Below, piece by piece: positions 1,926-13,460 of a DNA stretch of 64,000 bases. Within the stretch, counting starts at the first letter, position 1; every line of letters starts with the position of its first letter. This DNA is from Thermoplasmata archaeon. Lineage in GTDB: Archaea > Thermoplasmatota > Thermoplasmata > UBA10834. The position numbers and the translations under genes are program-made. The notes beneath the pieces are model-generated. The model was given only the letters and a program-made list of their open reading frames with translations, did no database searches and was not told the DNA's origin. The stretch is from contig JBFFML010000002.1 in NCBI GenBank assembly GCA_041554135.1, positions 22,212-86,211 of the forward strand, written 5' to 3'.

Positions 1926-3383
1926 TTGGCCAAAGCCGTTTTTTCCCCGTTGACGAGCGAGCAGGAAGACCAGGTGCACGAGTCATCGATCCGTATACTC
2001 GAAGAGATAGGAATCAAGGTCACGAGCAAGACGGTCATGGCCATGCTCAAAGAGCATGGAGCGACGGTCGACGACAAGGGCCAGATCGCGAAGTTGCCCG
2101 AAAGCCTGGTGGAGGAGTCCCTGTCGAAAGCGCCGAAGGAGTTGATGATGTGCGCCAGGGACAAGAGGTACGATCTTAGCCTTCCAGCATCGAAGCCGCA
2201 GGCGGTGAACGACGGTCAGCCCCCTTACATGTGGGACATGGACGGGCAGAGAAAGCGAAGCTCGACGATGCGCGACCTGATCGACCTCACGATCGTTTGC
2301 GACGCCATGCCTGAAGTGGATCTCTACTGGCCAGAGGTGATCGCTACGGACATCCCTCCCGATGTGTCGAGCTGCCACGAGTACGTGGCCGCGATGTTCC
2401 ACACCGGCAAGCATGTCCAGCACGGAGCAGGCAGTGTCACGGAGGCCAAGCTGGAGATCGATGTCGCTGCAGCCATCGTCGGGTCGGAGAAGGAGCTGGC
2501 CCGTAGACCAGTCATATCCATAACGCACACACCGATGACCCCGCTCAGATACGAGGCGGGCGATGTCGACGCTGTCGTGGAGTTCGCAAGGGCCGGTCTG
2601 CCCGTCGTGCACCTGTCGATGGCGATATCCGGTTCCGTCTCGCCTGTATCCCTCGCCGGGACGGTCACGCTCGTTAACGCGGAGAACCTCGCGGGAGCCG
2701 TCATATCCGAGATCTCCGCGCCAGGAGCTCCGATACTCTACAGTTCCGAATCGGGTCCGATGGACATGAGGACCGGCGTGTTCCTCTCGGGCTCGACGGA
2801 AGGATCCCTGATAAACGCCGCTGGATGCCAGATGGCCAGGAGGTACGGCCTGCCGTCCCAGGTCGGCGGCATCGCGGCGTCCGGGTGCGTCCCGGGGTTC
2901 GAGGTCGGCTATCAGAAGGCCATAAGCGCGTTGGTCCCCGCGATGGCGGGCGCCGACCAGATCGTGGGGATAGGCGGCATTGAGCGCTCGGGGTGCGAGT
3001 CCCTGGAACAGGTAGTGATGGACTGCGAGCTGTGGCGGAACGTGCTGAGAGCCTGGCGCGGTATAGATGTGAACGAGGCCACGATGGCCTATGACGCGAT
3101 CGCGCGCGTGGGCCCCGGCGGGTACTTCATGAAGGATCCTCACACGATCAAGCACTTCAGGAGCGAGAACCTCTTCCCTAAGATCGCCATGCTACCCGCA
3201 GAGCCTGGTAGGAAGGAGGAGCCGATGCACTTGGCTGCTGTGAGGGAGGCGAAGAGGCTGCTCAAGGAGCACAGGTGCCTTGAGCTTGAGGGCGACGTCA
3301 AGAAGGAGATCAAGGCGCTGCTCGCCAAGTACGACGAGGGCGTCCTGGGGCGAAGCGTCGCCGTCGACTACTTGGACAGGTGA
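1926..3383 (+). CDS. Trimethylamine methyltransferase (MttB) superfamily protein, non-pyrrolysine type
   Basis: VHESSIRILEEIGI, SPVSLAGT..L.NAE.LAG, MDMRTG, VGPGG.F motifs; no in-frame amber codon. Confidence 0.85.
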   Translation: MAKAVFSPLTSEQEDQVHESSIRILEEIGIKVTSKTVMAMLKEHGATVDDKGQIAKLPESLVEESLSKAPKELMMCARDKRYDLSLPASKPQAVNDGQPPYMWDMDGQRKRSSTMRDLIDLTIVCDAMPEVDLYWPEVIATDIPPDVSSCHEYVAAMFHTGKHVQHGAGSVTEAKLEIDVAAAIVGSEKELARRPVISITHTPMTPLRYEAGDVDAVVEFARAGLPVVHLSMAISGSVSPVSLAGTVTLVNAENLAGAVISEISAPGAPILYSSESGPMDMRTGVFLSGSTEGSLINAAGCQMARRYGLPSQVGGIAASGCVPGFEVGYQKAISALVPAMAGADQIVGIGGIERSGCESLEQVVMDCELWRNVLRAWRGIDVNEATMAYDAIARVGPGGYFMKDPHTIKHFRSENLFPKIAMLPAEPGRKEEPMHLAAVREAKRLLKEHRCLELEGDVKKEIKALLAKYDEGVLGRSVAVDYLDR

Positions 3384-3426: not shown

Positions 3427-4560
3427 ATGTCGGAATCCATCGGCTTTCTGAACGGCGGAGGCTATCAGCGTTCGCTTGTGAAGGCTGCGGACGCCGCTGT
3501 CAAGGAAGTCCTCGCGGTAAGGCGTGACGAGCGCGTGTTGATCATATCGAACTCGAACAAGGGGACGCGCGATATCGCGATGGCATTGTTCGACGCGTCA
3601 TTACGAGCCCGTGCCTCTCCTGTGCTGGCCTTCCAGAAGGAGAAGGGCCAGTTCGATTTCACAGAGGAAGAGGTGATAAAGGCGCTCTCCGCGGAACCCG
3701 ATGTGGTGCTGTCCATTAGCAAGGACAGGCTTGGGATGGACCGGCACGGCCTGAAGCACGGCTATTCTGGCAAGCGCCGCTACGACAGCCTGTTCGATAT
3801 GTTGTGCAACGAGGACAAAGCGAGGGCTTTCTGGTCGCCGGGCATAACCCCCGACATGTTCGCCAGGACCGTGCCGATAGATTATTCCGTCCTTAGGCGG
3901 GATTGTCGCAAGCTCGTACGCTCGATGATGACGGCCGAGGCGATAAGAGTGACAGCGCCTTCGGGCACCGACGTCACGGTCGGCGTGAAGGGACGTGCGC
4001 CCAAATCGGATGACGGCGATTTCAGGAGACCAGGCGGCGCGGGCAACATCCCCTCGGGTGAGGTCTACGTGTCCCCCGCCCTTGGCTCGACCAATGGCAG
4101 GATCGCGTTCGACGGCTCGATCGCCCTGAACGATGGCGAGGTCGTGATCAAGGAACCCATTGTCGCAACGGTTGAGGGCGGTTTCGTGAAGAGGATATCC
4201 GGGGGCGTTGAAGCCGAGATGTTGAGGAAGTCGGTCCGATACGGCCAACAGAACGCCAGACGGATGGCCTCCAAGGGGGAGCTGAAGCCGTCTGAGGCGG
4301 AGGGTTACTACAGGAACGCGCGCTCAATCGGCGAACTCGGTGTGGGGCTCAACAGGAAGGCCAGGATAGTCGCGAACATGCTCGAGGATGAGAAGGTCTA
4401 CGGCACGTGCCATTTCGCCGTCGGGAGCAACTACGACGGCGACGCCGATTCCCTGATACACCTTGACGGACTCGTGAAATCTCCGACCATATCATTGATT
4501 GGCCGGAACGGGAAAGACGAGGGGGATGTCATGGTCAGGGGCAAGCTAGTCTGGGACTAG
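3427..4560 (+). CDS. M29-family (thermophilic metalloprotease-like) aminopeptidase
   Basis: GNIPSGEVY, IGELGVGLN, EDEKVYGTCHFAVGSN and HLDG motifs; start set at ATG 3427 downstream of TTTTAAG. Confidence 0.85.
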   Translation: MSESIGFLNGGGYQRSLVKAADAAVKEVLAVRRDERVLIISNSNKGTRDIAMALFDASLRARASPVLAFQKEKGQFDFTEEEVIKALSAEPDVVLSISKDRLGMDRHGLKHGYSGKRRYDSLFDMLCNEDKARAFWSPGITPDMFARTVPIDYSVLRRDCRKLVRSMMTAEAIRVTAPSGTDVTVGVKGRAPKSDDGDFRRPGGAGNIPSGEVYVSPALGSTNGRIAFDGSIALNDGEVVIKEPIVATVEGGFVKRISGGVEAEMLRKSVRYGQQNARRMASKGELKPSEAEGYYRNARSIGELGVGLNRKARIVANMLEDEKVYGTCHFAVGSNYDGDADSLIHLDGLVKSPTISLIGRNGKDEGDVMVRGKLVWD

Positions 4561-4566
4561 GTCACG

Positions 4567-4574
4567 TTTTTATG
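4567..4574 (+). promoter_or_regulatory. Putative TATA box for the E1 gene
   Basis: TTTTTATG about 25 nt upstream of ATG 4598, the spacing expected for a leaderless archaeal transcript. Confidence 0.45.
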
Positions 4575-4597
4575 CCACCTGCCCCGTCTCCTTTTCG

Positions 4598-5413
4598 ATG
4601 GGGGAAGTGATCAAGCCCGGGGACGTGGACGGCGATAGGTTCGACAGGTCTCGCCGCATCGAGTGGCTGGACATGGACTGCATCGGCGAGGCAAGGGTCC
4701 TCGTGATAGGCGCGGGAGCTCTTGGGAACGAGGTGGGGAAGGATCTCGTCCTCTCAGGGTTCCGAGACATCACGATTGTGGACATGGATCACGTCGTCGG
4801 GTCCAACCTCAGTAGGTGTGTGTTCTTCAGCTCGGCGGATGTCGCGACGAGATCGTGCAAGGCCCAGATATTGGCCGAAGGCATGAACCGTCTCCGCGAG
4901 GACGTGAGCGCGAGATGGGTGGCCGATCGTGTGGAGGAGATCCCCGTGGAGGAGTTCAGCAAGGCGGACATCGTCCTTGGCTGCCTCGACAACATCGCAG
5001 CAAGATCGTACGTCAACGCCGCGTCATACGCCGCTGGCACACTGTACGTGGACGGCGGTATGGATGGCCTGATCGGCAAGGTCATGGTGGTCAGGCCGCC
5101 GGACGGTGCATGCCTAGCATGCGGTATGAACAGGTCACATGCCAAGGTGGCGAACCTGAGGTTCAGCTGCACAGGGTCCGATGTGACGTTCCATGAGCCG
5201 AGGGTCCCTGCGGAGATAACGACGACGAGCGTAATAGGCGCGGTGATGGTTCGGGAGGCGATCAAGCACGCATCGGGCAAGGACGACCTCCTGCTTTCGA
5301 ATGTGTTCTACTATGATGGCAAGATCAACCGCTCAGAAGAGCTGGAGGTGGAGCGCGACCCGCTCTGCGCGGTCCACGCCGAACGGCCAGCTACAGGTAT
5401 TCGAAACCCTTAA
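4598..5413 (+). CDS. E1 ubiquitin-like activating enzyme (ThiF/MoeB fold)
   Basis: GAGALG nucleotide loop, DMD.V..SNL.R, CLDN..AR..VN, Zn site C172/C175 + C257/H260, candidate catalytic C191 in FSCT. Confidence 0.92.
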   Translation: MGEVIKPGDVDGDRFDRSRRIEWLDMDCIGEARVLVIGAGALGNEVGKDLVLSGFRDITIVDMDHVVGSNLSRCVFFSSADVATRSCKAQILAEGMNRLREDVSARWVADRVEEIPVEEFSKADIVLGCLDNIAARSYVNAASYAAGTLYVDGGMDGLIGKVMVVRPPDGACLACGMNRSHAKVANLRFSCTGSDVTFHEPRVPAEITTTSVIGAVMVREAIKHASGKDDLLLSNVFYYDGKINRSEELEVERDPLCAVHAERPATGIRNP

Positions 5414-5415
5414 GG
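5402..5415 (+). promoter_or_regulatory. Putative internal BRE/TATA promoter for Ubl-E2-JAMM
   Basis: CGAAA-CCCTTAAGG about 30 nt upstream of the Ubl start; similar AAA..TTA(A/T) elements precede several other genes in the window. Confidence 0.35.
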
Positions 5416-5446
5416 TCTCTGTGACGGTGTCGCACTGGGTGGTTCG

Positions 5447-5686
5447 TTGCCCTTCCGCATCAAAGTGAAGAACGCCGAGACAGGCGCATCCGTGGAGATG
5501 GAACTCGAGAACGACAACACCGTGGATGAGGTGATAGAGAGTGCTGCCGCCTTCTGGAAGAAGGACATGGGGGCGTATGTCGTCCGGAAGGGGAAGAAGG
5601 TCTTGAGGGGAAGCACTTCGCTCACCGACGCCGGCATCCGAGAAGACGATGTTCTTGAGCTCGTGCCAGATCCCGAAGGCGGATAG
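5447..5686 (+). CDS. Ubiquitin-like (beta-grasp) modifier with C-terminal GG
   Basis: 79 aa, TTG start after GGGTGG; aligns by eye to ubiquitin (I.VK..TG, T(V/I), L.D..I, L.LV....GG); ends PDPEGG-stop. Confidence 0.88.
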   Translation: MPFRIKVKNAETGASVEMELENDNTVDEVIESAAAFWKKDMGAYVVRKGKKVLRGSTSLTDAGIREDDVLELVPDPEGG

Positions 5687-5691
5687 AGGCC

Positions 5692-6222
5692 ATGTCCTTT
5701 CCGCCGCTACCTATCGACATATTGAGGATACGTCTGAGAAACGAGATAGAGGCCTGTCAGCGTGAGCTGAGACACCACATATCGGTTTCCGACACTTCGC
5801 TGAGCGCCTTTCCGATACTGGTAAACATCACACTGATGCGTGTCCCCGGCCCTTCGCTGGTCAACGGCAGAGTGGTTCACAGGTTCGTCCATCGAATGAT
5901 CCTCTTGATCACCGAACAGTATCCTGTGGAGAAACCGATCGTCAAGTGGAGGACGCCGATATTCCACCCAAACATCATGCCGCCAGAGGACGGGGGATAC
6001 GTCTGCACCAAACTCCTTGAGAACTGGGACTTCAACTCCACATTGCTCACTTTCATCAAGGGGATAGAGTGGCTTCTCGCCAACCCGAACGCCGGCAATC
6101 CGTTCGGCAGCGACACGTGTACGCGTGCAGCGGCGCACTTCAACCGATATGGATATGACCCTCCGGACAGCCCCGGCGCGAACGGTCGACGCATCAGGAT
6201 AATAGGTGAGGCGGATGGTTAA
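5692..6222 (+). CDS. E2 ubiquitin-conjugating enzyme (UBC fold)
   Basis: YP..KP.V.W.TPIFHPNI...G.VC..LL..W and LL.NPN..NP motifs; HPN 92-94, catalytic C105. Confidence 0.93.
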   Translation: MSFPPLPIDILRIRLRNEIEACQRELRHHISVSDTSLSAFPILVNITLMRVPGPSLVNGRVVHRFVHRMILLITEQYPVEKPIVKWRTPIFHPNIMPPEDGGYVCTKLLENWDFNSTLLTFIKGIEWLLANPNAGNPFGSDTCTRAAAHFNRYGYDPPDSPGANGRRIRIIGEADG

Positions 6223-6856
6223 GCCGAGGATCGTCGGAGAAGTCCGAAGGGACCCGTTCAGAAGGCCTCCGCCGCACGATATACGCCCTCATCCGTGGTT
6301 CGCGAGTGACACGACGACACTCTATGATGAGGCGTTGGCTGAGGGTTCCGGACTTGAGATATTCATGTCTTCGACAGCGGAGGGCAAGATCCGGCGACAG
6401 TCACTCGACGCCGCGCCTGGGAGGCTCGAGGTCATGGGCCTGCTGCTTGGCGACGTCTGTTCATGGAACGGTAATGAGTATTCGATCATCCGGGATGTGG
6501 GAACCACCGCTCTCAAGAACTCGCCGGCGAAGGTGAAGTTCGACCCCGAAGCGTTGCCAGGCCTCTTCTCCAGCCTCGACGGCGTGGGTTTCGACTATGT
6601 CGTAGTAGGTTGGTATCATTCACATCCCGGTCACACTTGTTTCATGTCGGGAACCGATCTGCGCACACAGAGATCCATGTTCGATCAGCCCTTCCATTGC
6701 GCGGTCGTAATGGACCCTGTCGGGAGGGAAGTGAGGGCCTTCAAGACGAGGGATGGCGTATGCGTCGAAGTCCCGTTCGCGCTGACATCGCCCGGAGGAC
6801 TCAGGGTCAGGAGGCTCAAGTCGGCCGACTCTCTCGGCGTCTCCGGCGGCATATGA
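6215..6856 (+). CDS. JAMM/MPN+ metallo-isopeptidase (Rpn11/CSN5-like)
   Basis: EVMGLLLG, VVGWYHSHPG..CFMS.TD..TQ and AVVMDP motifs; ATG 6215 follows GGTGAG and overlaps the E2 stop. Confidence 0.93.
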   Translation: MVKPRIVGEVRRDPFRRPPPHDIRPHPWFASDTTTLYDEALAEGSGLEIFMSSTAEGKIRRQSLDAAPGRLEVMGLLLGDVCSWNGNEYSIIRDVGTTALKNSPAKVKFDPEALPGLFSSLDGVGFDYVVVGWYHSHPGHTCFMSGTDLRTQRSMFDQPFHCAVVMDPVGREVRAFKTRDGVCVEVPFALTSPGGLRVRRLKSADSLGVSGGI

Positions 6857-6904
6857 TGACTGAGCGCCGTGGTCCCAGAAAGCTTATTCCGTGGCCAGCT
6901 CCTT

Positions 6905-8068
6905 ATGGAATGTCAGAGGGATAGCTTGGAAACGGTCGCCTCGAAGAGTGTCTTCGTGGCAGCGGTCTGCCTGTCGTTGGTCATCGCCTGCCTGCCGGTA
7001 TTTGTGGAGGCGGACTCCGAAGACTACATGCTTTTCGTCAGTGTCGACGACAAGAAGGTGACCATCCTCTCAGGCAACTTCAGCGTCAGGGTCACGACGG
7101 AGTGGCCCAGGGTGATTTTCTGGCACGAGGTCGACCCTTTCAGCCCGTCCTTCGAGGTGAGTTATCCGCGCATGTATATGCACAACGACTCCGATCGTGA
7201 CGGCGTATTCGATAGCGGCGAGGCTGGTCTGACCGTGTTCCTCGACTCCAACCATGTGGAGTGGAACCTGACCAACATCGTTCAGGGGTTCAGCGAGGAG
7301 TGTGGGGAGTATGCCTACTTCGGCATGAGGTCCTCCCTAAACGCCTACTTTGTGGGTGAGAACGAGACCCTCGTAGAGTCCGACTGGGCGAACATGACTT
7401 TCTGGTTCTTCATCGCGGAGCTCCCGATTGAGTATCAAAACTCCATGGGCGGCTATGTCGTCGCGGGGATGACGCAGCTTCGCATGAATTTCACGTTATC
7501 CATCAACAAGAATCTGACAATGGACAATCTTGTCCTTGAGCAGTTCCTGCAGGGCGGGGCATCCACCAGTGTATTCCATCTGTATGAGTCTACGGCCGAG
7601 GGTGACACGGAAGTGAATAAAATCACGTCGACCGTGGACGAACGGCTGCTTGAGGACAACTGCAGCCATATGTTCAATGGCACGGCGAGCCCCATGCAGA
7701 AGGTGCAATTCGCCAAGGAGGACGGGGTGGTCCAGGCGTTCTACCTGTGGAGCTCCGACGCTCTATTGGGAACCTGCGAGAACTACTCGGCGTATCTCGT
7801 CAACTCCTCCTATTTCACGACCGGCAACGGCATGATGCTACACTCCCTCCTGCCAGTCGGCAACGGCACGACGGAGGTCTCCCACGTCTGCAGCACTGGA
7901 ATATATGAGTCCGGGTTCGTCGGCGGCGTCAAGGATTGGCTCAGGGAGGAGTCAGTCATCGCATCCATCATGCTCGCAACGGCCGTCGCCATCTTTGTGG
8001 CGTTATGGGTCTGGCGGAGGAGGCTGCGGAAGTCACAGCCTGAGGATTCCAAAGCGGACGAAGAATGA
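6905..8068 (+). CDS. Hypothetical membrane-anchored surface glycoprotein
   Basis: N-terminal hydrophobic signal, 12 N-x-S/T sequons, DSDRDGVFDSGE Ca-binding-like motif, C-terminal TM + RRRLRK. Confidence 0.7.
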   Translation: MECQRDSLETVASKSVFVAAVCLSLVIACLPVFVEADSEDYMLFVSVDDKKVTILSGNFSVRVTTEWPRVIFWHEVDPFSPSFEVSYPRMYMHNDSDRDGVFDSGEAGLTVFLDSNHVEWNLTNIVQGFSEECGEYAYFGMRSSLNAYFVGENETLVESDWANMTFWFFIAELPIEYQNSMGGYVVAGMTQLRMNFTLSINKNLTMDNLVLEQFLQGGASTSVFHLYESTAEGDTEVNKITSTVDERLLEDNCSHMFNGTASPMQKVQFAKEDGVVQAFYLWSSDALLGTCENYSAYLVNSSYFTTGNGMMLHSLLPVGNGTTEVSHVCSTGIYESGFVGGVKDWLREESVIASIMLATAVAIFVALWVWRRRLRKSQPEDSKADEE

Positions 8069-8071
8069 GTG

Positions 8072-8608
8072 TCAGACCCATATGGCGTGGCGTTTGCGCA
8101 TCGATCCCTCAGTCTGCCCAAGTTTGTCCATTAGCTGAGCGATTATGCCATCGAGGTAGATTAGCGTGGCGTCCTCGAAGAGCGTTCCGAGAGGGGCCAA
8201 GATCCCACGTTTCTCATCCTTGCCAGGCTTGATGTGGATGACAAGGTTCGACGCGTTCGCGAGCTTCGAGTGGACGTTCGCCGTCACGCTGACTACACGG
8301 GCGCCGACCCTTCGCACGATGTTCGCCGTCTGTATGCACGACATCGTGTTTCCTGTCTGCGAGACAATGATCACGAGATGTCCCTCCTCCACTATGGGCG
8401 TGATCGTCTCTCCGACGAAGTAGACTTCGAGTCCCATCTGGACGAGCCTGATGGCGAAAGCCTTGGCAATCAGGCCGGAGCGGCCGACGCCGTATATGAA
8501 TATCCTAGGAGACTTTATCAACATCTCCACGAACTGGTCGGTGCCCTCCACGTCGCCTTGCAGAGTCTCTCGTATGTTGTCTATTATGTAGTTCGTGCTT
8601 CGCCTCAT
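8072..8608 (-). CDS. hxlB: 6-phospho-3-hexuloisomerase (SIS domain)
   Basis: IFIYGVGRSGL, VGETITP and APLGTLFE motifs. Confidence 0.85.
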   Translation of the reverse strand: MRRSTNYIIDNIRETLQGDVEGTDQFVEMLIKSPRIFIYGVGRSGLIAKAFAIRLVQMGLEVYFVGETITPIVEEGHLVIIVSQTGNTMSCIQTANIVRRVGARVVSVTANVHSKLANASNLVIHIKPGKDEKRGILAPLGTLFEDATLIYLDGIIAQLMDKLGQTEGSMRKRHAIWV

Positions 8609-9648
8609 TTGGACCCCGCTTTGTCCTTCTTCGAGTTGTCCTTCATCTCCTTCGAGACCTTCTTGGTCAAGACTCTCTCCAGTATGACTTTCATGTACAT
8701 CGCGTCGTGCTCCAGAAGTGGGGAGCTGGATATCACGGTTATAGGCTTGTTCCTCTCGACCAGGCTTTCCGCCAACGGCTCGAACCGGAGGTCGCCCTTC
8801 TTGATCGAGGTGAAGCGTTTCTCGTTGCCTCCTTCGTGTTCCACACCAGAGAAGTGTGCGTAGAGCTCACCCCTCGAGCATTCGTCGACGGCGTCCAGCA
8901 GCTTGTCGAAGTCCTTGGGCTCTCGGAGCGAACCCGTCTCCCTCGAGTGATAGTGCGCGAAGTTCACGACCGGCACGAGTTCCTTCGACGCCTTGCACAG
9001 CCTGGTCACTTCGCTGAGCGAGCCAAAGACTTCCTGCCTGCCGCTGAGTTCCAACCCGATTGCCGCCTTGAGGTTATGCTTCCTGTACCACTTGGCCAGT
9101 TCCTGAAGCCTCTCCTTGGCCTTCTTGAAGGCGGTTCTATCCGTGATCTCGCCGTAGAGCCCTATGTGTGTGACGACCACCTTGGCGCCAAGCTCGTTGG
9201 CCATCAGGCCGGCCCATCTGATGGAGTCCATGCTCTTGAAGCACAGCTCCCCATCGCCTATGATGTCCATGTAGTATGGCGTGTGTATCGCTAGCTGGAC
9301 GTCCAGCTCGTCCGCCATGACTCTCAACTGCTGCAGTTCCGAGTAGCTTCTCGATATGCCGCTTGACAGCACCACAAGCGTGTCGCCGTTCTTGATCGGC
9401 TCGTCGAGATTCGAAATGGTCTCCTCTTTCAATCCCTTCTTGCGAATGATCTCGATCACGAGATCCGTTTGCAGTTCTCTGGGAGTGCGGCCGAACTCCT
9501 CCGGCTCGGCGCCCCTCTCATTGACGTTCGCCCTCACGAGCTGGGCTTCCATGGCTGTCAGGCCTAGGTTGTGAACATCCTCGATTCCATCTCTGAGGGT
9601 CCTGCCTTTGCACGACAGAGGTATGCCTGCTGGTCCAAAACGTATCAT
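8605..9648 (-). CDS. Endonuclease IV-like TIM-barrel protein
   Basis: MIRFGPAGIP start, HTPYY, GLELSGR...FGS, NFAH.HSR and HFSGVE motifs; start reset to ATG 9648. Confidence 0.75.
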   Translation of the reverse strand: MIRFGPAGIPLSCKGRTLRDGIEDVHNLGLTAMEAQLVRANVNERGAEPEEFGRTPRELQTDLVIEIIRKKGLKEETISNLDEPIKNGDTLVVLSSGISRSYSELQQLRVMADELDVQLAIHTPYYMDIIGDGELCFKSMDSIRWAGLMANELGAKVVVTHIGLYGEITDRTAFKKAKERLQELAKWYRKHNLKAAIGLELSGRQEVFGSLSEVTRLCKASKELVPVVNFAHYHSRETGSLREPKDFDKLLDAVDECSRGELYAHFSGVEHEGGNEKRFTSIKKGDLRFEPLAESLVERNKPITVISSSPLLEHDAMYMKVILERVLTKKVSKEMKDNSKKDKAGSK

Positions 9649-11445: not shown

Positions 11446-12300
11446 TCACCTCTCAGTCTTCGCGCGGATCTCCCAGGCGATCCTCAACGCTTGAACGGTC
11501 TCACTGACGTCATGCGCCCTCACTATATTCGCAGAATTCATAGCGGCGATCGCGGCTGCGGCCAGAGAGCCACCGAGCCTTTCACTTGTATTCCCGGTCC
11601 CGCTGAGAGCGCCGATGAAGGACTTCCTTGACACCCCTATGACTATGGGCTTCCCGAGAGACCCGAATTCCGCCAGCCTGGCGATGATCTCGATGTTGTG
11701 GTCTACAGTCTTGCCGAAGCCTATGCCGGGATCGATCATTATCCTGCGGGAATCGACACCGTCTCTCTCCGCTTCCGCCACTCTGTCACCGAGGTATCCG
11801 ATGATGTCCACCACGACGTCCGCGTATCGAGGAGACGCTTGCATGGTGCGAGGATCTCCCTGCATGTGCATGATCACAACAGACGCTCCGTGCCTGGCGA
11901 TGATCTCCCTCATGCGTTCGTCCCGAAGGCCTGACACATCGTTCACGATGGACGCACCCGCTTCGAGCGCGGCCTCCGCCACTTCTGGCTTCGTCGTGTC
12001 GATGGATATCTGACCCGGGTACGACTCTGCTAGTCTGCGGACGACCTCCACGGTTCGCCTGAGTTCCTCCCCCACGGACACGATCTCGGCACCAGGCCTG
12101 GTGGATTCCCCGCCGATGTCCAAGAGCGTCGCCCCCGATGCAATCATGTCGACGCCCCTCCGGAACGCCTCCTCCACGTTCAGATGCAATCCATCTCCGG
12201 AGAATGAGTCGGGCGTGACGTTGATCGCACCCATGACGATCGGCGGCCCGAATACGATGTCCCTGGCGCCGATTCTGACTGTGGAAGCCTTCTCGCTCAA
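11446..12300 (-). CDS. folP: Dihydropteroate synthase
   Basis: INVTPDSFSGDG, DIGGESTRPG, DPGIGFGK, SRKSFIG and RAHDV motifs. Confidence 0.95.
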   Translation of the reverse strand: MSEKASTVRIGARDIVFGPPIVMGAINVTPDSFSGDGLHLNVEEAFRRGVDMIASGATLLDIGGESTRPGAEIVSVGEELRRTVEVVRRLAESYPGQISIDTTKPEVAEAALEAGASIVNDVSGLRDERMREIIARHGASVVIMHMQGDPRTMQASPRYADVVVDIIGYLGDRVAEAERDGVDSRRIMIDPGIGFGKTVDHNIEIIARLAEFGSLGKPIVIGVSRKSFIGALSGTGNTSERLGGSLAAAAIAAMNSANIVRAHDVSETVQALRIAWEIRAKTER

Positions 12301-12321: not shown

Positions 12322-13416
12322 TCACGTGATGAGCAAATCGTCGATCAATTCCGTAATGTCCTTCACTTCTATGTCAACCTTCACAAGCTCATTCCCGAAT
12401 CTCAGGGTACCGGCACAGAACGGACACGAGGTGACCAGGATATCCGCGACCTCGGAAGCAGACAAAATCCTCCGCGAGGCGATTCTCTGAGAAGCCTTCG
12501 GGTCCGCGGCTCTCACTCCGCCGCCTCCTCCACAGCATCTAGCCTGGTCCCTGTTCTCCTTCATCTCCACGAATTCCGCCTCGGGAATGCTTTTCAGCAA
12601 CGAACGCGGCTCTTCGTAGATCTTCATGTGTCTGCCGATGTGGCAAGGGTCGTGGTATGTCACTCTCTTACGGAGCGGTCTCAGCTTGAGGTTCTGTCTG
12701 GCAAGGTACTGGACTACATGCTCCACCTCGAAGTCATATTCGAAGTGCTTAACGTACTCCTCCTTGAACATGTGCAGACATCCCGCGCAAGTGAAGAGCA
12801 GTCGTTTGATCCCGAGCCGCTTAACGGCATCCAGATTCGCCCTCATCAGCTCGAGAATCTCCTTCTTACCCTGACCTATCCTGTGGAGGGTACTTCCGCA
12901 GCACACCTCGTCGACGAGGGTGAAATCTACACCGAGCTTGTTCAGGATAGATATGGTGTGAGTGGCGACCTCCGTTGTGCGGTACCTCGAAGTGCATCCG
13001 ATGAAATAGCCTATCTCCGCCTCCTTGACGGGAACGTCGAAATCCGTCGTCTTCGTCTCGCCATATGGGTTCCCTGTCCGTTCTATGTTGTCCACGATCT
13101 TGGTGTGCGCGGGCAGCATGTGTCCCGCCTCGACGAGATCCCTTCTGACGGCCTTGACGATCTCTATCACTTTTATGTCCGAAGGACATCTTCTCTCGCA
13201 GTCCTTGCATGTCGTGCACTGGTAGATCCTCTTGACAACGGAATCGTCAGGTTCAATTTCCCCTCTCGCCAACCCATAGGCGAGTATGACCTTGCCTCTG
13301 GCGACTGACGGGTCCCATTGGTCATCCTCGAAGTATGGACAGACACTCTTGCAGAAGCCGCAGAACGTGCATGTCAGCATCTCCTTCTCCAGTTTCTTGG
13401 TTCTGTCGGCCTTCAT
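12322..13416 (-). CDS. Fe-S oxidoreductase (HdrD/GlpC/GlcF-like, two CCG domains)
   Basis: Two ferredoxin motifs (CTFCGFCKSVCP, CTTCKDCERRCP), CCG repeats, YHDPCHIGR. Confidence 0.88.
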   Translation of the reverse strand: MKADRTKKLEKEMLTCTFCGFCKSVCPYFEDDQWDPSVARGKVILAYGLARGEIEPDDSVVKRIYQCTTCKDCERRCPSDIKVIEIVKAVRRDLVEAGHMLPAHTKIVDNIERTGNPYGETKTTDFDVPVKEAEIGYFIGCTSRYRTTEVATHTISILNKLGVDFTLVDEVCCGSTLHRIGQGKKEILELMRANLDAVKRLGIKRLLFTCAGCLHMFKEEYVKHFEYDFEVEHVVQYLARQNLKLRPLRKRVTYHDPCHIGRHMKIYEEPRSLLKSIPEAEFVEMKENRDQARCCGGGGGVRAADPKASQRIASRRILSASEVADILVTSCPFCAGTLRFGNELVKVDIEVKDITELIDDLLIT

Positions 13417-13460
13417 TGCGCATCCCCTTGGATCATGGTATGGATTCAAGTGCCAGCGAG

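Follow-up and report, generated by a model that had tools for sequence, protein, structure and literature searches.

We examined a stretch of 64,000 nucleotides from a Thermoplasmata archaeon (the window: contig C2:22212-86211 of a host genome of 1.69 Mb, in 40 contigs, 81.6% complete) for a gene cluster that appears to encode a ubiquitin-like conjugation system. The listing of open reading frames (ORFs) places four tightly packed, co-oriented genes at window positions 4598-6856 (+), in the order E1-Ubl-E2-JAMM, i.e., an activating enzyme (E1), a ubiquitin-like modifier (Ubl), a conjugating enzyme (E2) and a JAMM metalloprotease:

4598-5413, + strand: E1-like Ubl-activating enzyme, minimal ThiF-fold adenylation domain, 271 aa (Pfam ThiF)
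5447-5686, + strand: Ubl modifier, 79 aa, TTG start (AlphaFold2 fold; sub-cut-off Pfam ubiquitin match)
5692-6222, + strand: UBC-fold E2 conjugating enzyme, 176 aa (Pfam UQ_con; HPN and Cys105)
6206 or 6215-6856, + strand: JAMM/MPN+ metalloprotease, 213 aa from ATG 6215, or 216 aa from GTG 6206 (Pfam JAB)

E1 and Ubl are separated by 33 nt and Ubl and E2 by 5 nt; E2 and JAMM overlap by 8 nt, provided that JAMM starts at the ATG at 6215, 5 nt upstream of which sits GGTGA. With JAMM read from this ATG, the ORF coordinates agree with the layout given in an earlier reading of the window (the original prediction). The G+C content of the cluster is 0.58-0.59, compared with 0.55-0.64 along the window, across which it is even.

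Products of the four genes

The E1 consists of a single ThiF domain spanning residues 26-258 (Pfam ThiF, 2.3e-42, 145 bits; cut-off 28.1). It contains a GxGxxG motif at 38-43 and cysteines at 172, 175, 191 and 257, and when 11 orthologues were aligned together with the other ThiF paralogue of the host genome, G38, G40, G43, D62, R73, K88, D131, C172, C175, C191 and C257 were invariant and H260 was nearly so. C172/C175 and C257/H260 stand where MoeB and ThiF have two CxxC zinc pairs, and the CxxC of C172/C175 with C257/H260 is likely to form the zinc site of this E1. Cys191 follows the first Cys pair by 16 residues, a position that we take, from the ThiF and MoeB structures, to be the crossover loop; this loop carries Cys184 in ThiF, and eukaryotic E1s insert their Cys domain there. 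Cys191 was kept in all 67 E1 orthologues (66 match CxxC...[SA]CTG and one reads GCTG), and is the candidate catalytic (thioester) cysteine. At the level of residues, the protein has what would be expected of the conjugating-type E1 superfamily: the Gly motif, the Arg/Asp residues and a candidate thioester Cys.

The best matches of the E1 to PDB sequences, all of which cover adenylation domains only, were SAE2/UBA2 (8.4e-19, 71 bits), ThiF/MoeB (about 5e-17; 65 and 64 bits) and UBA3 (4e-16); UBA1/6/7 and UBA5 were matched further down, and Cap2/BubCD only at about 1e-5. By this ranking the E1 is therefore about equally distant from sulfur-transfer E1s and conjugating E1s. The NCBIfam models for ThiF, MoeB and UbaA each matched it below cut-off and no NCBIfam equivalog was reached (UbaA, NF047750: 69.8 bits, cut-off 450), and the PADLOC "E1-E2" (Cap2-type) models matched it, to 5.3e-13, in the generic adenylation region only. 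Nor is it a canonical eukaryote-type E1; its 271 aa leave no room for a Cys domain or a ubiquitin-fold domain.

The Ubl scored 21.2 bits (2.5e-4) with Pfam ubiquitin. An AlphaFold2 model built on 14 orthologues (predicted local distance difference test score, pLDDT, 88; predicted template-modelling score, pTM, 0.74) has the beta-beta-alpha-beta-beta-beta order of a beta-grasp, and its top Foldseek matches were SUMO1, ubiquitin, ISG15, Hub1 and the ubiquitin of Caldiarchaeum (CsUb), at TM 0.79-0.88 (TMq to CsUb, 0.87), with no MoaD, ThiS or SAMP entry among the matches listed. The protein is, on this model, a ubiquitin-type beta-grasp modifier by fold, not by sequence score. Its C-terminus reads ...ELVPDPEGG; as no residue follows Gly-Gly, the Ubl of the window is encoded in mature form. 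P74, D75, P76, G78 and G79 were invariant in the alignment and K39 and K50 nearly invariant, and the tail ELIPDPEGG was almost invariant. Among 75 orthologues, 51 end at Gly-Gly and 24 continue for 1-10 aa, which implies a processing step in the lineages with tails; such tails parallel the CsUb precursor, which is trimmed by CsRpn11 according to the text of PMC6043591.

The E2 belongs to the UQ_con family by its score (9.3e-12, 45.2 bits; cut-off 27), by its HPN motif (residues 92-94) with Cys105, and by its UBC fold. H92, P93 and N94 were invariant and C105 was present in 16/17 aligned sequences; HPN...C was kept in 81/81 E2 ORFs from the 80 loci described below. About 13 C-terminal residues are predicted to be disordered. 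The best PDB sequence match was 7.7e-11 (1.4e-12 with the family profile), and the best 60 PDB matches were all E2 or SUMO-E2 entries, none of them named Cap2, Bil or Bub. The AlphaFold2 model (pLDDT 89.1) returned, among the Foldseek matches listed, eukaryotic E2s only (Rad6, UBE2S, Ubc9 and others; TMt 0.51-0.72). No PADLOC family matched the E2 or the Ubl, and Prok-E2 did not match the E2. With the E2 as query, the matching protein representatives numbered 4937 at E<=1e-3, falling to 122 at <=1e-10 and to 37 at <=1e-30. Close relatives formed 241 clusters at E<=1e-3 (from 280 candidates), which bear the labels Thermoplasmata archaeon, Methanobacteriota archaeon or Euryarchaeota archaeon RBG; some were already annotated "ubiquitin-conjugating enzyme E2" by NCBI or JGI. 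The Atlas search matches listed were archaeal E2 clusters only, from Thermoplasmatota and Microcaldota. Placement of the E2 relative to Asgard, TACK and eukaryotic proteins rests on the PDB ranking and on the relevant passage of a 2023 preprint (10.1101/2023.07.25.550441), in which a "Ca. Thermoplasmatota E2" clade forms a deep branch of the archaeal E2/UEV (ubiquitin E2 variant) proteins. Among the E2-family representatives, P0123 (682 aa) and P0137 (534 aa) are much longer and presumably fused. In a sizeable set of representatives of 222-232 aa the E2 domain begins at about residue 80, as in the N-terminally extended type of family f16 described below.

The JAMM matched Pfam JAB at 3.2e-9 (37.1 bits; cut-off 22.5) and Prok-JAB at 1.6e-5. 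Its metal site is complete (E72, H135, H137, S145 and D148, in the 213-aa numbering), and HxHx7SxxD was found in 72/73 orthologues, the single exception being cut by a contig end. The best PDB matches were Rpn11 (7.3e-13), CSN5 (3.9e-12), the Caldiarchaeum Rpn11-like protein 6fjv (3.8e-9) and AMSH (about 1e-5). It fell under the NCBIfam cut-off for the desampylase (NF041370; 27.1 vs 130 bits), and matched the PADLOC JAB models weakly (0.006). By sequence it is a JAMM/MPN+ isopeptidase of Rpn11/CSN5-like type, likely to act as a deconjugase and, where the Ubl of a lineage has a tail, also as the precursor-processing enzyme.

These results uphold the four domain assignments of the original prediction, ThiF, UQ_con and JAB being above their Pfam cut-offs and the Ubl being recognized by its AlphaFold2 fold and Foldseek matches. 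The catalytic residues that had been named (C191, HPN/C105 and E72/H135/H137/S145/D148) were all present and were invariant or nearly so in relatives, and the Gly-Gly terminus attributed to the Ubl was likewise found, the protein ending ...PDPEGG with G78 and G79 invariant.

Distribution and chromosomal setting

A scan of species-representative genomes yielded 159 stretches encoding an E2 relative, and the locus statistics use 80 of them. The records behind the 80 loci are all of Thermoplasmata or Thermoplasmatota type or are archaeal metagenome-assembled genomes with less specific names; 26 loci carry the labels Methanomassiliicoccales, Methanomassiliicoccaceae or Methanomassiliicoccus sp. 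Same-strand tblastn with the window proteins found Ubl in 77/80 loci, JAMM in 76/80 and E1 in 68/80, with all four genes in 67/80, and an independent clustering of ORFs recovered the E2 at all 80 loci, the Ubl at 75, the JAMM at 73 and the E1 at 67. The order was E1-Ubl-E2-JAMM in all but one locus where the ORF clustering found the genes. The four-gene arrangement is far beyond chance, given that the full set occurs at 67 of the 80 related loci and that its order agreed wherever it was compared. Several of the tblastn misses fall at contig ends, and at one locus (L026) about 3.9 kb lie between E1 (1055-1843) and Ubl (5750-5986), which is followed by E2-JAMM.

Downstream of the cluster, ORF clustering found a SIS-domain gene in 61/80 loci and a xylose-isomerase-like TIM-barrel gene in 57/80; a ribosomal block lies further downstream (L18e in 48, L13 in 46, S9 in 44 and RpoN in 42 of the 80). 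The families of the window's own neighbour genes were assigned by Pfam. The same SIS/TIM-barrel and L18e-L13-S9-RpoN neighbourhood was found in loci among the 26 with Methanomassiliicoccales-type labels, and its conservation argues for inheritance over mobility. No transposase, integrase or defence gene was seen among the 12 neighbouring ORFs scanned, at 1-16 kb of the window. From its shared position by the ribosomal block, the Methanomassiliicoccales-labelled loci included, the cluster therefore looks resident and for the most part passed on vertically, with losses, and not like a defence island. Eukaryotic contamination or a recent eukaryotic transfer was also considered and was rejected; the G+C content of the cluster is that of the window, and its synteny is found in archaeal genomes (80 loci).

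An E2 relative (E<=1e-5) was present in 152/401 sampled genomes of the class, in 86/259 high-quality genomes and in 48/105 genera; the window's own family was positive in 42/45 genomes, and some families of the class gave no E2 match (0/59, 0/43 and 0/33). In a sample of the phylum (completeness at least 80), UQ_con exceeded the Pfam cut-off in 95/401 genomes and in 0/14 control genomes, with several positive families outside the class, e.g., 15/15 and 4/5 genomes. The cluster is not rare: a large part of the class has it, and a large part of the phylum has its E2. The window carries one ordinary member of a Thermoplasmatota E1-Ubl-E2-JAMM system.

The original prediction had placed the DNA in a probable Thermoplasmatota archaeon and had described the cluster as resident, among housekeeping genes without mobile elements. 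Each point was borne out: the close relatives are labelled Thermoplasmata, Thermoplasmatota or Methanomassiliicoccales, the neighbours are ribosomal, SIS and TIM-barrel genes with no mobility or defence genes in the 12 ORFs scanned, and the synteny survey found a shared neighbourhood in most of the 80 loci.

Two further genes flank the cluster in the window:

3433-4560, + strand: M29-family aminopeptidase, 37 nt upstream of E1 (Pfam Peptidase_M29, 2.6e-11)
6869-8068, + strand: 399-aa protein without Pfam match, starting 12 nt past the JAMM stop (ORF)

The M29 gene adjoins the cluster in 33/80 loci and the 399-aa gene in 34/80, in the closest relatives only, and both are probably context outside the tagging system; the 399-aa gene may be co-transcribed with JAMM in the lineage of the window. 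The 399-aa protein has a hydrophobic stretch at either end and numerous NxS/T sequons. At 1926-3383 (+) the window also contains a homologue of the MttB-family methyltransferases (259 bits). As its single 485-aa frame has no internal stop, it would seem to be a non-pyrrolysine member. Near it, on the - strand, lie genes for a pterin-binding protein (11446-12300) and for a CCG/4Fe-4S protein (12322-13449).

Other E1, JAB and RING genes of the host genome

The host genome encodes a second ThiF-family E1 (G000:C13:45415-46182; L084:1468-2235) of 255 aa, with 249 bits to ThiF and two CxxC pairs, flanked by a serine hydroxymethyltransferase-like gene and a ThiI-like gene, both read by eye. From its sequence it is probably a MoeB/UbaA-type sulfur-transfer enzyme. 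Two further Prok-JAB genes are present. With a separate MoeB/UbaA-type E1 and two Prok-JAB genes, a sulfur-carrier or SAMP-type job therefore appears to be covered elsewhere in the genome, and a SAMP/MoeB-type apparatus seems to coexist with the cluster, as the text of PMC6043591 reports for Caldiarchaeum.

We examined the host genome for candidate E3 genes. Pfam zf-RING_2 gave sub-threshold matches only, and a regex scan for C4HC3 fingers (C-x2-C...C-x-C...H-x2-C...C-x2-C) found three, all encoded outside the window:

C4:90993-95516: 1507-aa protein (L087:501-5021) with C-terminal finger
C7:14288-15304: 338-aa protein (L082:1315-2328) with N-terminal finger
C14:29969-31807: 612-aa protein (L086:1001-2836) with finger followed by DUF835

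The C4 and C14 fingers matched Prok-RING_1 at 23.7 and 25.8 bits, under the cut-off of 29.1, and the C7 finger matched zf-RING_2 at 15.9 bits, under the cut-off of 27.3. The Prok-RING_1 family reportedly originates with Burroughs, Iyer and Aravind in 2011. In the C4 protein, for which the 23.7 bits obtained by hmmscan became 29-32 bits by genome search, a repetitive charged region, read as coiled coil, makes up most of the sequence and is accompanied by a weak CARDB match and by the finger, whose eight metal ligands were invariant in 11 orthologues. Proteins orthologous to it (about 1450-1630 aa) occur widely in the class, also in families without an E2 match. As for the other two proteins, the C7 finger is followed by numerous zinc ribbons and a weak match to zf_UBZ, and the C14 protein is membrane-protein-like.

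Prok-RING_1 was found in 199/401 genomes of the class (a count that includes a weak match in genome G212). Its presence does not follow that of the E2: RING matches without an E2 match were found in families f10 (7/7), f14 (8/8) and f20 (6/6), and E2 with few RING matches in f26 (RING in 1/8) and f6 (RING in 8/48). Co-occurrence therefore gives no support for an E3 role. Complex prediction for the E2 with the RING domain of the C4 protein gave a median of 0.28 compared with a mark of 0.32, and was not used as evidence either way.

A lead of another kind came from the sister family f16, where at all four loci examined (L088-L091) the orthologue of the giant C4 protein (1452-1461 aa) is divergently adjacent to an E2-like gene of 227-254 aa. 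At the first of these loci (L088) the features are:

8289-8999, + strand: E2-like protein
3562-7947, - strand: giant RING-like protein

The f16 E2-like proteins keep HPN and have the catalytic Cys replaced by Lys, Arg, His or Tyr (UEV-like); the one that was aligned has a Ubl-like N-terminal extension of about 78 residues. Judged by coordinates alone, the adjacency of an E2-like gene and a giant RING gene occurs in 10 genomes. Queries with the window proteins found only distant ThiF paralogues (27-30% identity, in 4/5) and no JAMM orthologue in five f16 genomes, and the E1/Ubl/JAMM cassette was not found in these five. The f16 genomes are kin, so the adjacency may be a single evolutionary event; it is suggestive, a lead for a partnership of E2 and RING and not a demonstration. 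Prok-RING_1 proteins encoded outside the cluster are possible E3s, at the level of a lead. The E2-like protein of L088 is followed by a small protein whose CDC48_N match is below threshold.

Interpretation and relation to known systems

We consider it likely that the cluster is a chromosomal, vertically inherited and reversible system for Ubl conjugation in Thermoplasmatota archaea. What the analysis yielded directly is the set of genes, their folds, the catalytic residues with their conservation, the synteny and the distribution; each chemical step, the targets and the physiological role are inferred. The E1, probably a homodimer like MoeB, ThiF and Uba5, would bind ATP and adenylate the C-terminal Gly79 of the Ubl, which would then form a thioester with Cys191 in the crossover loop of the E1 and be handed on to Cys105 of the E2. 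The E2 would transfer the Ubl to lysines of target proteins, either directly or by way of an E3 encoded elsewhere; the Rpn11/CSN5-like JAMM would remove it from targets and, in relatives with residues past Gly-Gly, would trim the Ubl precursor. Among possible roles, analogy to known systems points first to protein turnover or quality control.

Several observations weigh against this interpretation. At six loci with ample upstream DNA (L038, L039, L040, L044, L063 and L065) no E1 adjoins Ubl-E2-JAMM, and ORF clustering found no E3 gene in or beside the cluster in the 80 loci, with no conserved zinc-finger neighbour. The Ubl score of 21.2 bits falls under the Pfam ubiquitin cut-off of 25.4. The E1 sequence is about as near ThiF/MoeB (65 and 64 bits) as SAE2 (71 bits), and, to judge from its sequence, the E1 has neither a ubiquitin-fold domain nor a separate Cys domain. 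The TM-scores of the E2 model to solved E2s were moderate (TMq 0.49-0.61), and the E2 fold therefore has lineage-specific features. The original prediction had called the cluster a complete, reversible Ubl system outside the TACK and Asgard lineages, which stands as the best reading, except that "complete" was generous for a cluster without an E3.

Three alternatives were weighed. In the first, which we regard as improbable, the main acceptor is not a protein lysine and is instead a lipid, sugar or nucleic acid (compare ATG8 lipidation and non-protein ubiquitylation), or the Ubl and E2 bind non-covalently. The cluster has no E3 or substrate adaptor, and its Ubl ends in an acidic PDPEGG that does not resemble the ubiquitin or SUMO tail; moreover, the Cys-less f16 E2-like protein, retained beside a giant RING-like protein, shows that non-catalytic roles of the fold exist in this group. 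However, the catalytic residues of E1, E2 and JAMM are all kept in the family of the window and in most of its relatives, and the isopeptidases that the JAMM resembles have protein conjugates as substrates.

That the cluster might instead be a Bil-like or CBASS-like antiviral module, tagging phage proteins or priming an effector on infection, is quite improbable. Its gene content equals that of the bacterial type II BilABCD systems as outlined in 10.1101/2023.09.26.559546, and it shares E1, E2, Ubl and JAB content and the logic of reversible conjugation with BilABCD, Bub and CBASS Cap2/Cap3; in addition, the E1 matches PADLOC "E1-E2" models to 5.3e-13 and the JAMM matches PADLOC JAB weakly at 0.006. 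Neither the E2 nor the Ubl has a PADLOC match, however, and the E2s of Bil, Bub and Cap2 are of other families, whereas that of the window matches UQ_con only and has HPN where BilB, according to PMC11354881, has CEHH. Cap2 is a fusion of E1 and E2, which are separate genes in the window, and the JAMM is nearest to Rpn11/CSN5. The bacterial systems occur in defence contexts; the cluster holds one chromosomal position by ribosomal-protein genes across orders, a conserved housekeeping position; none of the 12 neighbouring ORFs scanned was seen to be a mobile-element or defence gene, and the presence of the cluster in 42/45 genomes of its own family is unlike the patchiness of defence islands. 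The features of a Bil or CBASS locus were not found, i.e., there was no PADLOC match for E2 or Ubl and the neighbours are M29, SIS, TIM-barrel and ribosomal genes, with no search aimed at a CD-NTase.

A sulfur-carrier system, in which the E1 thiocarboxylates the Ubl for tRNA thiolation or cofactor synthesis with E2 and JAMM as accessories, is very improbable: the E1 is indeed minimal and MoeB/ThiF-like, with sub-cut-off matches to the ThiF, MoeB and UbaA models, and archaeal SAMPs act both as sulfur carriers and as protein modifiers (text of PMC6043591), but a MoeB/UbaA-type paralogue is encoded elsewhere, adjoining the by-eye ThiI-like gene, the Ubl model best matches ubiquitin, SUMO and ISG15 with no MoaD, ThiS or SAMP among the matches listed, no rhodanese or sulfurtransferase gene occurs among the conserved neighbours (80 loci), and the retention of HPN...Cys in all 81 E2 ORFs implies selection on transthiolation.

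Returning to the conjugation system, the closest characterised relative is the operon of Caldiarchaeum subterraneum (Aigarchaeota), of a type also found in Asgard archaea, which encodes Ub, E1-like, E2-like, a small RING finger E3 and an Rpn11-like JAMM, and which has been reconstituted in vitro according to the texts of PMC5654768 and PMC6043591. The Caldiarchaeum operon and the cluster have in common a single-domain Gly-Gly modifier of the ubiquitin fold, a ThiF-type E1, a UBC E2 with HPN and Cys, and an Rpn11-like JAMM, within one compact archaeal operon. They differ in that the Caldiarchaeum/Asgard operon encodes a RING E3, whereas the cluster has no RING gene and so lacks the E3 of that operon type; in gene order, which is E1-Ubl-E2-JAMM in the window and rpn11-Ub-E2-E1-srfp in Caldiarchaeum (Csub1473-1477); in the E1, which in Caldiarchaeum has a separate Cys domain of about 60 aa (per PMC11354881) and in the window has 271 aa with the presumed catalytic Cys in the crossover loop; in the modifier, CsUb needing trimming, whereas the Ubl of the window is encoded mature with the acidic tail PDPEGG; and in the host phylum, Thermoplasmatota and not Aigarchaeota or Asgard. 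Sampylation (the SAMP/UbaA and Urm1-like system, with the JAMM1 desampylase) likewise uses a GG beta-grasp modifier, a ThiF-type E1 and a reversing JAMM, but it needs no E2, whereas the cluster encodes one, and the E1 and JAMM of the window fall far short of the UbaA and desampylase models (69.8 vs 450 and 27.1 vs 130 bits).

The original prediction had left it open whether this variant was already described. Part of it is in print. Fuchs et al. 2018 (PMC6043591) describe, in the text of their section 6, a prokaryotic "JAMM-3" group that is more similar to Rpn11/CSN5, and state that the JAMMs nearer Rpn11 sit in Ub/E1/E2 operons to which an E3 is added only in Caldiarchaeum and Asgard. This operon description matches the cluster, and JAMM-3 would be the JAMM family of the window; section 6 gives no taxa, nor the operon, synteny, distribution or residues of the present cluster. 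The preprint passage on the Thermoplasmatota E2 clade (10.1101/2023.07.25.550441) names neither the operon nor its synteny, distribution or residues, and in the relevant portion of Grau-Bove et al. (PMC4327156) Euryarchaeota are credited with no more than a single MGII genome that has RINGs and a UCH. A literature search found no description of the operon, its synteny or its residues and no experiment on it, while figures and supplements (e.g., the E2 trees of PMC5654768 and its Supplementary Fig. 1, and the cluster maps of PMC6043591) may show more. Novelty is limited, the E2 clade, the operon type and the E2 names in databases having already been glimpsed.

A wider proposal may be put forward tentatively, as one that we doubt: the cassette would be ancestral to Thermoplasmatota, would have arisen before or independently of the Asgard/TACK systems, and would work with a minimal E1 and with Prok-RING_1 E3s, above all the coiled-coil protein of about 1500 aa, which in f16 adjoins the Ubl-extended, Cys-less E2 variant. 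If this were true, the partnership of RING and E2 and a UEV-type degeneration would both have evolved in archaea of Euryarchaeota grade, and relatives of cultivated methanogens (Methanomassiliicoccales) would offer a route to study in living cells.

The result is incremental rather than surprising. E2-based tagging of the ubiquitin type is usually presented as a eukaryotic trait foreshadowed in Asgard and Aigarchaeota. As a likely conjugation system of Thermoplasmatota, the cluster would make the same core machinery an inherited housekeeping feature of a large phylum of euryarchaeal grade, and would give a wider base for reconstructing the origin of the ubiquitin system. It would also be a simpler natural version to dissect: its E1 is minimal, its Ubl is encoded mature and its operon has no E3 gene. 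Such a version could reveal how the modifier passes to an E2 from an E1 that lacks a ubiquitin-fold domain.

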